22,923 nucleotides of DNA from a virus. Below the pieces are notes generated by a model. The model saw nothing but the letters and a program-made list of their open reading frames with translations, searched no databases and was not told where the DNA came from. Shown piece after piece: positions 4,001-20,236 of the stretch (position 1 is the first letter of the stretch; each line of letters starts with the position of its first letter). The translations under genes were made by a program, and so were the position numbers. The DNA lies in the IMG/VR virus record IMGVR_UViG_3300029922_000840. The stretch is one strand, 5' to 3'.

Positions 4001-4030
4001 AGTATACGGGGAGTACCGGGGGTTTGTCTA
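4001..4030 (-). promoter_or_regulatory. Copy 1 of the conserved promoter motif: -35 TAGACA, 18-nt spacer, -10 TATACT, read on the minus strand. It sits in the divergent 248-nt intergenic region upstream of the ligase operon.
   Basis: Plus-strand text AGTATACGGGGAGTACCGGGGGTTTGTCTA. The reverse complement gives TAGACA-N18-TATACT. The same architecture and spacer CCGG blocks recur at 14472-14500 and 20207-20236. Confidence 0.5.
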
Positions 4031-4106
4031 TTTAATTTCGAAAAAATCTCGACTATCAAATGTTAAGGAGTTTCCCGACTACTTCCCTTATTCTTAAGGG
4101 GACTTC

Positions 4107-7100
4107 ATGATGCAAATTGAAAACTGGCGTGGCCTGTGGAACCTATTGACAACCTATGCGGTCAACGACATCGCGTATTATGAGGGCTCATCCTACTTCG
4201 CTTTGGACATCAACACCGGGAAAGCCCCAATCCTTGCAAACATAGGGGTTTACTGGTCTCCAGTGGCCTTAGCCGGGGAGCAGGGAATTCAGGGTCAGCA
4301 GGGCGTTATAGGCCCCACTGGAATTCAAGGTGTACCCGGAATTCAAGGGCCAGCAGGGAACCCCGGAATTCAGGGAATTCAAGGAAATCAAGGTGACCGC
4401 GGGCCTGAGGGTTTGCCCGGAATTAAGGGCGATACCGGGAGTCAGGGGATTCAGGGAGTCAAGGGCGACACCGGAATTCAAGGTGTACCCGGGGTTCAGG
4501 GAGTCAAGGGCGATATTGGCGACACCGGCCAAGGCTTAGTTTGGCGGAACACTTGGGAGGCGATTGCCACCTACAACACCTATGACTGTGTCCCCTATGA
4601 GGGAGCATCATATATCTGCCTTGCCCCCAACGTCCTGAATGTGTCCCCAGATTCGGATGATTCAAAGTGGGGCTTACTAGCGCAGGGCGGCGGTACAATT
4701 GATTGGTCGGAGATTAAAGATGTTCCTACCACGGTAGCCGGGTACGGCATCACCGACCTATCCCCCGTGGCAACGTCGGGCTCGTACAACGACCTCAACA
4801 ACAAGCCAACCTTAAACTTCGACCCGGCTGGGTCAGCAAGTACGGTACAAGGGAGTCTTACAGCGGAGGTAACAAGAGCGGAGGGGGTTGAGGCTTTGAA
4901 GGCTAACACTTCTAGCCTTGCTCCAGTTGCCTTCTCAGGGGATTACGCTGACCTGAGTGGAACACCCACCCTCGGTACCGCCGCCACTCAGAACAGCTCC
5001 GCGTTCGACCCGGCTGGTACGGCCTCTACAGTTCAAACCAACCTCACCTCGGAAACTTCGCGTGCTCTCGCGGCGGAGGGTCTGCTCGTCCCGAAGACCA
5101 CAACTATCAATGGCAAAGCCCTCTCCAGCAACGTGACCTTGGCGATAACTGACTTTGGGGGAACGCTCCCGCACGCTCAATTGCCGACTTTGCTCAGCAC
5201 CGACATTCCAAGCATCCCCGAATCACAGGTCACCAACCTCGTCAACGACTTGGCCGCAACCGAAAAGACTGCGAACAAGGGCGCGGTGAACGGCTATGCT
5301 GGCTTAGACGCTAACGGGCAGCTCTATACTTCACAGCTCCCAGCACTTGCTATTGTGAGCACCTCTGTGGTCTCCTCTCAGACTGCGATGCTGGCACTCA
5401 CAGCTCAGCAAGGTGACGTAGCTATTCGTGAGGACATCAACGAAACGTTCATCCTTGCTGCGTCTGACCCCACCCTCCTCGCCAACTGGAAGCAAATTCT
5501 CACCCCGGCATCCCCGGTACAGAGTGTCAACGGACAGACAGGAATTGTGAACCTCGCCATCCCGGCAGCTCAGGTCAATAGTGACTGGGCATCGGGGAGC
5601 GGTGTAACTCAAATTCTCAACAAGCCCACCCTCGGCACCGCCGCAGCTCAGAATTCATCTGCCTTTGATTCCGCTGGCTCTGCTGCGACAGTGCAGACCA
5701 ACCTCACCTCGGAAGTCTCTCGTGCAACCACTGCGGAAGGTCTGCTGGTTCCAAAAACAACCACGGTAAATGGTCACGCCCTATCCGCTAATGTCACGGT
5801 CTCTGCTTCTGATCTTACAACGGGAACCCTGCCTGTTGGTCAACTTCCAACAATCCCATATAGCCAACTTTCGGGCACGCCAACGATTCCTTCTGTACCT
5901 CTCACGACCATTCAAAATAATGGTGTCACGGTCACCCCCGTCTCAGGAACGGTCAATCTCATACCCGGCTCGAACGTCACCTTGACCACCTCAGGTGACT
6001 CTATCACCGTTGCCTCCACGACAACATTCTCCGCCCTGACGGGTTCCACCAACACCACAGCCGCCATGGTGGTGGGTACAGGGTCGTCTATCGCTGCAAC
6101 TGGTACTGGTACCATCACTGCTACCTCCTGCCCAACGGAGACCACCCGCGCTGAGGCTGCTGAAGCTCTCCTGCTACCTATCACCACGGCAGCCAGCACC
6201 TATGCTACTCAGACCAACCTGACGGCTGAAGTTACTCGTGCAGAGGCGGCTGAGGCACTGCTTGTGGCCAAGACCACAACAATTGCTGGCCACCCACTGT
6301 CTGGCAACGTGACTGTTGCGTATACTGATCTAACCGGCCTTCCGACTCTTGGAACTGCCGCATCACACGCATCTACAGACTTTGATTCTAGCGGTGCCGC
6401 AGCGTCGGTTCAGACAACTGTAAGCGCATCCATCTCTGCCGAGACAGCGCGGGCTGAAGCTGCCGAAGCTGTCCTTACCACAGCCGTCGCTGGTAAGCAA
6501 TCTGCCCTCGGGTACACACCAGAGAATTTGGCCAACAAGGGTGTAGCAAGTGGTTATCCAACCCTTGATAGCACAGCGCACATCCCGATCAATCAACTTC
6601 CTGCCTCTGTGCAGGGAGCAATGTCATACGTTGGTGTGTGGAATGCAGCCACCAACACTCCGGCAATTAGTAGTGGAGTAGGAACTAAGGGTTTCTTCTA
6701 CAAGGTCAGTGTTGCTGGCTCGACAACAGTTGATGGCAACTCTATTTGGCACGTTGGCGACATGCTCATCTTTGATGGAGCTGCGTGGGATAAGATTGAC
6801 AACTATGAAGCTGTAACATCTGTTGTGGGGCGCACTGGTGCAATCACTCTTAGTGAGGCAGACATCACTGGGTTGGTTGCTGACCTTGGCACACTCACTG
6901 CGGGCATCGCCGGAGAAGTAACCCGTGCGGAAGGCATTGAGGCCACGCTGGCCGCAAACCTCGCAGCGGAAGTTACAAGGGCTGAAGGTGTAGAGAGCAC
7001 ACTTGCCCCGATAGCAGGGCCACTGTTTAATGGCCCTGTTGGTATTGATGTAGCTACTCCAGATCAAGCTCTTACTCTTGCCACTGGTGATGCTGTTGCG

Positions 7101-19195: not shown

Positions 19196-20182
19196 TTACT
19201 TACCAGCCTTTGCAGCCTTCTTGTTGGCCAGTGAAGCCTTCAAAGCGGCCATCAGGTCAACCGTGACCACTGCGGTGGCGTCCTGCTTCTTGACTTCAGG
19301 AGCGGCCACGCCAGCCTTCTTGGCGGTCAGCAGGTTGCGGAAGCGAATCGAGAACTTGTCGTTGTAGTCCGAGGAGACGAACTTGTCAGACATCGCCTCG
19401 CCAAGCTGCTTCGCCAGAGTCTTCTCGTCCTCGCTCAGGACAACCGGGGCAACCTTGTCGAAGATGCGGATTTCGTGTTCGAAGTACACGAAGTGAACCG
19501 CCAGACCAACCTTCAAAGGGCGGATGATGACAGTCTGTTCACGCCCCCTCTGAGCGGTCTGAGCAACAGCCACCTGACCCGTGCTCACCAGCATCTCGCG
19601 GAAGACGGCGAGGGCGCGTTCGACAATCGAACCACCATCGGCTCCGAGGTACTCGGCAGCTTCGAAGTACAGGGGGTCAACTTCCGTCGCCGGAACCAGC
19701 TTCTCAACGGTCATGACCTTGTCGGCCAGAACCATGCAGCCCTTCTTCTCGTCGTCAGTGATGACGAAAAACTTGCCGTCGTCATCCTTCATGCCCTTCA
19801 GGGACTGGGCACGCTCGACAATCGCCTCGCACGCCTCACACTTCATCGCACCCTGCTTAAGCTGTCCGTACACGGGAGCCTCTTCAGAGGCTTCGTGGTT
19901 GCACTGGTGAATCATGTTGGTCTTGAACTTCTCGGAGTCCTCAATGACCTTGTAGGTCTTGACGGGGACGGTCAGGCCATTCGCGCCCTCGATGACGACC
20001 AGCTTACCCGACCAAGTCGAACGGCCACAGCCAACCTTCTCGGGGGCGGCGGCGTTCACATCGGCGAACTCAACCTTCGGGTGGAGAAGGTTGTTCAACT
20101 TGCTGGAGAGGTCGGCGACACTAGGCTTCGCGGGAGCCGCGACGGGGGTTTCGGTCTTCGATGTGTTCTTTGCCTTTGCCAT
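19196..20182 (-). CDS. ku: Ku-like DNA end-binding protein (bacterial/phage Ku homologue), 328 aa, with a Lys/Ala-rich N-terminal extension and a Lys-rich C-terminal tail.
   Basis: Compared with mycobacterial Ku from memory: RSTWSGKLVVIEGANGLTVPVKTYKV ~ RAIWTGSIAFGLVNVPVKVYSA; CEACEAIVERAQSLKGMKDDDGKFFVITDDE ~ CEACGEVVDYRDLARAYESGDGQMVAITDDD; LVPATEVDPLYFEAAEYLGAD ~ FVPAADVDPMMFDRSYFLEPD; C-terminal DLMAALKASL...KKAAKAGK. SD AAGGAGA. Confidence 0.85.
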   Translation of the reverse strand: MAKAKNTSKTETPVAAPAKPSVADLSSKLNNLLHPKVEFADVNAAAPEKVGCGRSTWSGKLVVIEGANGLTVPVKTYKVIEDSEKFKTNMIHQCNHEASEEAPVYGQLKQGAMKCEACEAIVERAQSLKGMKDDDGKFFVITDDEKKGCMVLADKVMTVEKLVPATEVDPLYFEAAEYLGADGGSIVERALAVFREMLVSTGQVAVAQTAQRGREQTVIIRPLKVGLAVHFVYFEHEIRIFDKVAPVVLSEDEKTLAKQLGEAMSDKFVSSDYNDKFSIRFRNLLTAKKAGVAAPEVKKQDATAVVTVDLMAALKASLANKKAAKAGK

Positions 20183-20206
20183 TTTGGTGTTTCTCCTTAT
20201 GTTTAC

Positions 20207-20236
20207 AGTATACCGGGGAAGTACCAGATTTGTCTA
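20207..20236 (-). promoter_or_regulatory. Copy 3 of the conserved promoter motif (TAGACA-N18-TATACT), immediately upstream of ku.
   Basis: Plus text AGTATACCGGGGAAGTACCAGATTTGTCTA. The leader GTAAACATAAGGAGAAACACCAAA-ATG is nearly identical in layout to copy 2. Confidence 0.55.

Follow-up and report, generated by a model that had tools for sequence, protein, structure and literature searches.

The window analysed here is the whole stretch of 22,923 nucleotides (nt) of the IMG/VR virus record IMGVR_UViG_3300029922_000840, and the element in question is a promoter-like cassette present on its minus strand in three closely similar copies, designated S1, S2, and S3. S1 sits in the 248-bp divergent intergenic region between a DNA-ligase-like gene (3073-3858, minus strand) and a gene encoding a collagen-repeat protein of 1229 amino acids (aa) (4107-7796, plus strand), S2 is located upstream of the gene of a 241-aa protein (13726-14451), and S3 upstream of ku (19196-20182). 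The minus-strand genes encode an HNH-RNA ligase, a small DNA ligase, the 241-aa protein, an 819-aa vault-like protein, PTH2, an R2K ATP-grasp protein, Ku, an rIIB-like 410-aa protein, and the C-terminal part of rIIA. The plus-strand block 4107-10439, comprising the gene of the collagen-repeat protein and its neighbours (tail-fibre-like), likely encodes structural proteins. The positions of the three copies given in an earlier note on this DNA proved exact on re-reading:

4001-4030, minus strand: S1 promoter core, TAGACAAACCCCCGGTACTCCCCGTATACT, with first element TAGACAAA, spacer of 18, and CCCCG followed by TATACT; -10 at 4006-4001
14472-14500, minus strand: S2 promoter core, TAGACAAACCCGGTGAGTCCCGGTATACT, spacer of 17; -10 at 14477-14472
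20207-20236, minus strand: S3 promoter core, TAGACAAATCTGGTACTTCCCCGGTATACT, spacer of 18; -10 at 20212-20207

In S3 the TAG at 20236-20234 doubles as the stop codon of an open reading frame (ORF) for a 106-aa Zn-ribbon protein (20234-20554).

Composition and significance of the three sites

The first hexamer of the sites, TAGACA, matches TTGACA at five of six positions and is separated by 17 or 18 bp from TATACT, which in S1, S2, and S3 fits the -10 pattern TAnnnT; the relatives discussed below have TATACT, TATATT, or TAGAWT in its place. The similarity extends to the flanks, as the earlier note had described: an A/T-rich tract precedes the first hexamer in all three copies (AAATTAAA, AAAATTAATG, CTAAAATTG), and a C-rich block, CCCGG or CCCCG, directly precedes TATACT. 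The leaders had also been called similar, which applies to S2 and S3, as both have GTAAA after the -10 and the arrangement GGAG..AAACAC..ATGGCA; a repeat finder independently paired 14454-14482 with 20189-20217, i.e., S2 with S3 (D15).

The pattern TAGACA-N14-22-TAYAMT occurs three times in the window against 0.03 expected, and none of 100 shuffled sequences reached three. A generic sigma70 scan, which covered bases 1-20000, returned six promoter-like sites against 11.1 by chance, i.e., a depletion; S2 and S1 were its top two sites (10/12 matches), S3 lying outside the scanned bases. A model of 41 sites, all taken from other contigs, recovered S1-S3 only in the window, with 45.7 bits for S1, 37.2 for S3, and 26.8 for S2; the next-best match in the window has 2.7 bits and the null maximum is 4.6. 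S1-S3 are all intergenic and in the same orientation as the downstream gene, and the position-weight models detected no site of this type in the plus-strand block 4107-10439.

The three-site observation is thus real and highly significant statistically, with the exception of a "diverged fourth copy" that had been placed before the 311-aa gene:

2246-2274, minus strand: alleged fourth copy, CAGACA-N17-TATAAG, a chance-level match

It is a three-mismatch match, of which the window contains 10 against 9.4 expected, it has neither the A/T tract nor the C-rich block, and it is outside the top matches of both position-weight models. This sequence may be an ordinary promoter and is not demonstrable as a family member. 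Two other look-alikes were rejected. The site at 18797-18825 (minus strand) before the R2K gene (AAGCCAAA...CCGGGGATACT) scored 13.5 in the first position-weight model, inside the null range, and was not listed by the better one; that at 3046-3075 (minus strand), just after the ligase stop codon (TAGCCAAA...GGTACT), scored 12.3, likewise inside the null range, and 2.7 in the better model. Both are intergenic and may be decayed copies of the cassette.

A probable promoter family of peat, bog, and soil phages

Further copies of the cassette are found beyond the window. In the same phage, within the 10 kb beyond the window (L001), TAGCCAAAAAGGTGTCAACCCCGGTATACTGT precedes rIIA at 7548 of L001, and a diverged copy precedes a 96-aa gene at 6555 of L001. 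A scan of viral contigs revealed copies in contigs of 34 kb and 463 kb, and a scan of metagenomes with the pattern TAG[AC]CAAA-N11-12-CC[CG]GTATACT matched at least 118 stretches with at least 102 distinct sites, 99 of which are listed with full flanks. Positions left unspecified by this pattern are conserved among the 99 listed sites without any selection, and more strongly in an A/T-rich subset. Upstream, the family has two A-tracts, one at about -55 to -50 and one at -43 to -38, with a T-tract (-49 to -47) and C (-46 to -44) between them, and the whole UP-like tract of about -55 to -38 is present in the unselected listed sites, in the family subset, and in S1-S3. A or C follows just after TAGMCAAA, pyrimidines occupy -18 and -17 with no A at -17, and the stretch 3' of the -10 is purine-rich and C-poor. 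The dominant first element among the listed sites is TAGCCAAAAC, the TAGACAAA of the window being a minority form.

The 41-site model also finds four sites, of 26-38 bits, in the relative L012, which was reached through protein homology and not through the motif. Among the matches listed, 19 motif-bearing loci encode proteins that are 33-76% identical to proteins of the reference loci, and the cassette stands before orthologs of the genes for Ku (L094), the 241-aa protein (L025, L012), rIIA (L107), and the ligase (L012), in phages whose proteins are 40-70% identical. Its sequence varies with the lineage: the L012 version reads TGGCTAAAT...YCCG/TCGG-TATACT, the L014 version TGGCCAAAT...CATG-TATATT, and in L016-L018, whose proteins are 30-47% identical, TAGCYGAAA...CCG-TAGAWT is found at rIIA, Ku, the 241-aa gene, and the ligase. 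Judging from these sequences, the promoters within one genome appear to change in concert, a joint drift to be expected if one recognition machinery reads all of them.

It is very probable that S1-S3 are sigma70-family promoters of one family. That they are copies of a composite sigma70-type promoter cassette of about 65 bp, belonging to uncultivated, mostly jumbo phages of peat, bog, and soil, is given a probability of roughly 0.6. In these phages the cassette is found before many genes of the prereplicative type, i.e., rIIA, ku, the DNA ligase gene, the 241-aa gene, and many small ORFs. It is an addition to the known phage promoter families with an extended consensus, unusual in its non-canonical first element, its C-rich extended -10, and a predicted transcription start (+1) at the AUG or the Shine-Dalgarno sequence (SD).

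Fourteen contigs of JGI bog metagenomes, the longest of 36 kb, carry the phage of the window. Homologs of its 241-aa protein are encoded on contigs of 328-435 kb and 340 kb, and motif-bearing relatives are on contigs of 248, 332, and 463 kb (among the matches listed); because these contigs range from 248 to 463 kb, the phage is placed in a clade largely of jumbo phages. The closest homolog of the 241-aa protein is P0002 (82% identity). The closest cultured relatives in rIIB are the jumbo phages Xoo-sp13, PA5oct, and RsoM2USA (~36% identity). In a megablast with its full length, the window had no match among 50,697 phage records, and neither a search of viral contigs with the Ku protein nor a search with the sigma fragment gave confirmed relatives.

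The position of the cassette relative to translation signals is fixed, and the elements flanking the three cores are as follows:

4031-4055, minus strand: UP-element-like A/T tract of S1 (GATTTTTTCGAAATTAAA), by its sequence and by the family-wide tract pattern at about -55 to -38
3932-3994, minus strand: 20-codon ORF (MDNPEFDFTFQQNPVRETVR) from the ATG at 3994-3992, which lies exactly 6 nt past the TATACT of S1 and is the predicted +1
14501-14525, minus strand: UP-like A/T tract of S2 (GTTTGAAAATTAATGT), by its sequence
14452-14471, minus strand: discriminator and short leader of S2, GTAAAT then GGAGGGAAACACTA; predicted +1 at 14465, the first G of the SD
20237-20260, minus strand: UP-like A/T tract of S3 (GAGCTAAAATTG), within the 3' end of the 106-aa ORF
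20183-20206, minus strand: discriminator and leader of S3, GTAAAC then ATAAGGAGAAACACCAAA; predicted +1 at 20200

Among the 99 listed sites, 24 have a start codon 5-7 nt past TATACT that opens an ORF of at least 50 codons, 16 of them an ATG at exactly +6, and 28 more have an SD-led start 16-25 nt past TATACT. In the window the ATG-at-+6 layout is found in S1 alone, with an ORF of only 20 codons, S2 and S3 being SD-led; the leaderless layout is also present in L012 and L166. Initiation 7 nt after the -10 would place +1 at the A of the ATG in S1, giving a leaderless mRNA, and at the first G of a GGAG(A/G)G SD in S2 and S3, with a 5' untranslated region of about 11-19 nt (predicted as ~14 nt for S2 and ~18 nt for S3). 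These putative start sites were derived from the sequence. TANNNT with its first T about 12 nt before the start codon is a recognised signature of leaderless genes (PMC3160421); S1 and the 24 listed sites resemble such promoters, the first T of the -10 lying 11-13 nt before ATG or GTG, whereas S2 and S3 differ from them in being SD-led, with the SD at +1. The predicted layout, leaderless or with a 5'-terminal SD, is also unlike that of phiKZ, where no leaderless transcripts were present among the mapped 5' ends (PMC8244752), and that of AR9, with leaders of 26-491 nt (PMC5312081).

At S1 the ATG of the ligase gene does not come until 3858, downstream of the 20-codon ORF. Since the ligase ortholog of L012 starts directly at the +1 of its cassette, about 137 nt seem, by this comparison, to have been inserted between promoter and ligase in the window. 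A 37-codon ORF starting with TTG, in another frame than the 20-codon ORF, extends to the SD of the ligase.

Recognition of the cassette and alternative readings

The cassette can be compared with several known systems. Like the early promoters of T4, which have an extra consensus beyond the hexamers, called "uber" UP/-35/TGn/-10, and stand in many near-identical copies before prereplicative genes including rIIA and rIIB (PMC2988021), it combines an A/T-rich UP element with sigma70-type elements 17-18 bp apart and a consensus beyond the hexamers. It differs in its first element, TAG(A/C)CAAA(A/C), in having CC(G/C)G and not TGn, in its -10, TATACT, and in a predicted +1 at AUG or SD; a TGn extended -10 is absent from S1-S3, where -15 to -13 are C, G or C, and G, and the generic scan found no TG before the second hexamer. 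The middle promoters of T4 share with it a phage-specific element near -30 combined with a host-type -10, and T4 rIIB has one (PMC2988021), but the spacing and the UP tract of the cassette also fit an ordinary -35 reading. MotA or AsiA homologs were not identified, the genomes being partial and no search having been aimed at them. In PA5oct, whose rIIB is among the closest from cultured phages, 32 intergenic TTGAC/TATAATA promoters, highly conserved, lie at mapped starts, and transcription is ascribed mainly to host RNA polymerase (PMC7318152); this phage likewise has a conserved promoter family, but of a different, A/T-rich sequence, with no leaderless layout reported and at a large phylogenetic distance.

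Spacer conservation had been taken in the earlier note as a sign of an overlapping operator, through which a phage regulator would co-regulate the ligase, ku, and 241-aa genes. The sigma70 geometry ahead of the ligase region, the 241-aa gene, and ku was confirmed, as was the sharing beyond the hexamers, but not an operator for just these three genes. What is conserved family-wide in the spacer is the pyrimidine/C-rich block at -18 to -13 abutting the -10, together with the bases that directly follow the first hexamer, i.e., positions adjoining the -10 and -35, where the polymerase itself makes contacts; in mid-spacer the sole preference, for G/G/T at -23 to -21, is weak, and this part is not kept between orthologous promoters (S2 versus L025 and L012). 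Because the same cassette stands at at least 99 sites, before many unrelated genes in relatives, spacer conservation is a property of the clade-wide promoter class. The S1-S3 spacers are alike beyond the family average (CCCGGT(A/G)..T.CCC(C/G)G), which, together with the G/G/T preference, would suit an operator, and a global early shut-off factor binding all copies is conceivable. Yet neither a dyad nor a consistent direct repeat was found in the S1-S3 spacer beyond the incidental GTATAC, which is replaced by GTAGAT in more distant relatives (-10 TAGAWT), and the 410-aa helix-turn-helix (HTH) protein, one of the regulators proposed, proved to be rIIB-like (PF26926; ~36% identity to annotated rIIB of jumbo phages). 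An operator bound by a phage repressor or activator is therefore very unlikely, and the extra conservation is best read, from the sequences, as an UP element together with extended forms of the -35 and, specific to the clade, of the -10, all of them part of recognition and promoter strength. A chance similarity, or a repeat other than a promoter such as an RNA element or the end of a mobile element, is effectively refuted by the three sites against 0.03 expected, by 27-46 bits against a null maximum of 4.6, and by the fixed register to start codons or SD; nothing speaks for it beyond the general caveat that a consensus match is not a proof of function. As DNA, S1, S2, and S3 with their flanks do not fold (z = 0.58, 0.06, and 1.45), which rules out an N4-like hairpin promoter or a stem-loop in the spacer, and scans for Rfam families and tRNAs found none at the sites, which rules out an RNA family or a tRNA-linked element.

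A sigma70-family holoenzyme is indicated as the reader by the spacing of 17-18 bp, a -10 of the form TAnnnT, the register of +1, and the UP-like tract. By analogy with the sigma70 holoenzyme, the C-terminal domains of alpha would bind the phased A-tract/T-tract/CC/A-tract at about -55 to -38, sigma region 4 would read the extended first element TAG(A/C)CAAA(A/C) at -36 to -27, and sigma regions 3 and 2 would read the clade-specific extended -10, (C/T)(C/T)CC(G/C)G with TATACT. The most likely reader, with odds a little better than even, is the host RNA polymerase with the host primary sigma, the cassette then being an early-class promoter. The driven genes are of the prereplicative type, which supports this assignment, as does the case of PA5oct, whose conserved promoters were located around start sites and whose transcription is ascribed mainly to the host enzyme (PMC7318152). 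In L166 and L169 a Sigma70_r4 gene lies just downstream of the ku driven by the family promoter and has no family promoter of its own. Furthermore, the same cassette drives a conserved gene of 106-115 aa in bacterial contexts, where the GTG or ATG stands 5 nt past the -10 in a leaderless layout; these contexts include a type I restriction-modification operon, a CarboxypepD_reg outer-membrane protein, and, in an Acidobacteriaceae metagenome-assembled genome (MAG), an IS3 element with a helicase. The gene (protein ..LYCVEFE..LFPEYKRNA..DWQTGR..) is found at 5911-6293 of L150, the Acidobacteriaceae MAG, and in L030, L043, L050, L098, and L119, and its product has no PADLOC, PHROG, or Pfam match. 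Either it hints at the host, or it is a bacterial gene connected to a promoter of the phage type.

Several observations weigh against reading by the host enzyme, and a part of them would favour a phage-private class, in which the decamer is read by a phage sigma70-family protein or by a MotA-like activator (sigma appropriation), with the host core and the -10 contacts kept and with middle timing. The family consensus TAGCCA matches TTGACA at only 4/6 positions, the conserved element of about 10 bp is centred at about -31/-32, between the canonical -35 and the position of the T4 MotA box, and where known extended -10 elements have TGn, the cassette has CC(G/C)G; in T4 the MotA-dependent middle promoter of rIIB has its box at -30 in place of a -35 (PMC2988021). 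None of 185,579 species-representative genomes contains the motif in its commonest form, a looser form has 23 matches in representative genomes, 22 of which look random, and the sequences upstream of other genes on the bacterial-context contigs are of an ordinary TTGACC type, so the motif is not simply the host consensus. Nor is it a generic promoter of Acidobacteriaceae phages, since it was not found in four cultured ones (Tunturi 1, 3, 4, and 5; first 50 kb of each). Each lineage has its own version common to all its promoters, and the relatives encode, in the same gene cluster, sigma-like and GerE-type HTH proteins that could act on the sites. Against a phage factor, the sigma-like gene follows a ku driven by the family promoter and shows no evident promoter besides, which suggests that the family is active first. 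At the syntenic position of the window phage a sigma gene is lacking, a gene in chromosomal contexts of bacteria is driven by the cassette too, and the TTGMAC-N14-TAGTAY motif before the vault-like gene, described below, is a better candidate for a phage-factor class. A phage-private class is accordingly considered a minority possibility. It is improbable that the cassette is a private code of a phage sigma, activator, or modified polymerase that Acidobacteriaceae-type bacteria copied onto the leaderless 106-115-aa gene as an infection sensor; if so, that gene, which in bacteria lies beside restriction-modification systems, helicases, and IS elements, would be expressed only upon takeover of transcription by such a phage. 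A role compatible with that of a promoter is that of homology patches for recombination, shuffling small genes as do the PeSL cassettes of the T4-like phages RB49 and phi1, which consist of an A/T tract, a sigma70-like promoter, and a stem-loop, occur in about 50 to about 100 copies per genome, and have been shown to recombine (PMC2839356, PMC4122927). Like PeSLs (~100 bp), the cassette is a composite intergenic element, found before small ORFans and often next to a terminator; about 50-65 bp are conserved at many intergenic sites, and gene content between conserved promoters differs, a GerE HTH gene of L166 corresponding in position to the 106-aa Zn-ribbon ORF of the window, and the sigma gene plus a 394-aa gene of L166 to an 81-aa ORF. 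Terminator hairpins directly precede some copies (ku in L166 and L017), but unlike PeSLs, S1-S3 have no internal stem-loop, terminators being separate and at some copies only; moreover, the differences in synteny may have other origins, which leaves shuffling a tentative suggestion.

In the relatives (3347-5538 of L166, 448-2651 of L169, and 1-331 of L012) a 114-aa GerE/LuxR-type HTH protein is encoded between rIIB and ku, at the position of the 106-aa Zn-ribbon ORF (20234-20554) in the window, and a Sigma70_r4 protein of 174-201 aa immediately behind ku, in place of the window's 81-aa ORF (18825-19070). Tunturiibacter phage Tunturi_5 (L162, PP885688, 1-50000), a cultured jumbo phage, has a leaderless-type motif of its own, cCGTAGGTT-N6-ATG with TCATCTTT upstream, and a second repeated motif of this type, GGGTATTAGC-N4-5-ATG.

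A position-specific model of the main promoter class is now at hand for widespread uncultivated giant phages of peat and soil. It can be used in annotating transcription units, in separating prereplicative-type from structural blocks, and in recognising metagenome fragments, and it may allow start codons to be corrected because many genes begin exactly at the predicted +1. The fixed register from the -10 to the AUG or to a 5'-terminal SD is a compact design, and a contig of an Acidobacteriaceae MAG that carries the cassette gives a concrete lead to the host. These results leave present concepts of phage transcription unchanged.

Transcription units and neighbouring genes

From the arrangement of the genes, S1-S3 appear to open three transcription units, i.e., the ligase region, the 241-aa gene and genes downstream, and ku and genes downstream. 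Two strong intrinsic terminators are located 280-390 nt upstream of S2 and S3, separate from the cassettes:

20590-20624, minus strand: intrinsic terminator after rIIB, a 12-bp GC-rich stem followed by UUUAUUUU; minimum free energy -39 kcal/mol (91 nt), z = -4.97
14782-14812, minus strand: intrinsic terminator after the vault-like gene, GAGCCGGGGA-UUAACC-UCCCCGGCUUUUU; z = -3.16

The former ends the rIIA-rIIB unit upstream of S3, and the latter lies upstream of a 78-aa ORF and S2.

The small ATP-dependent DNA ligase (3073-3858, minus strand) has 261 aa with a KFNG motif near the N-terminus, and a single 351-aa ORF at 147-1202 (minus strand) fuses an HNH endonuclease domain to an RNA-ligase domain; no gene with a product identical to this 351-aa RNA ligase is on record. 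The HNH-RNA ligase, the small DNA ligase, and Ku suggest an end-joining or repair module.

The 819-aa protein (14830-17289, minus strand) matches MVP_shoulder (3.5e-26) and Vault_3 (1e-9) and has 862-aa orthologs in related jumbo-phage contigs. In the phage collection only the huge uncultured LR756500/1/3 (462-735 kb) have matching proteins, with 40% identity over 99% of the length; LR756500 and LR756501, which share the vault-like protein and have 24-32% GC, show no trace of the promoter motif. No literature description of vault-like proteins in phages was found; Borg elements have been reported with vault-like proteins (bioRxiv 10.1101/2024.11.05.622173). A second upstream motif, TTGCAC-N14-TAGTAT, is located before the vault-like gene of the window (17352-17378, minus strand), and TTGAAC-N14-TAGTAC is found at ~4340-4370 of L012, upstream of the ortholog. 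Because its 14-bp spacing is unlike that of sigma70 promoters, TTGMAC-N14-TAGTAY may represent a different, phage-factor-dependent promoter class.

On the plus strand, the 1229-aa protein (4107-7796) has collagen triple-helix repeats, encoded by DNA of the GGAATTCAGGG type with a period of 9 nt, especially at 4271-4510. Its gene contains internal duplications, 4965-5137 with 5625-5797 and 5760-5884 with 7545-7669, and a segment of 134 aa is 83% identical between this protein and the 570-aa protein encoded at 11110-12822.

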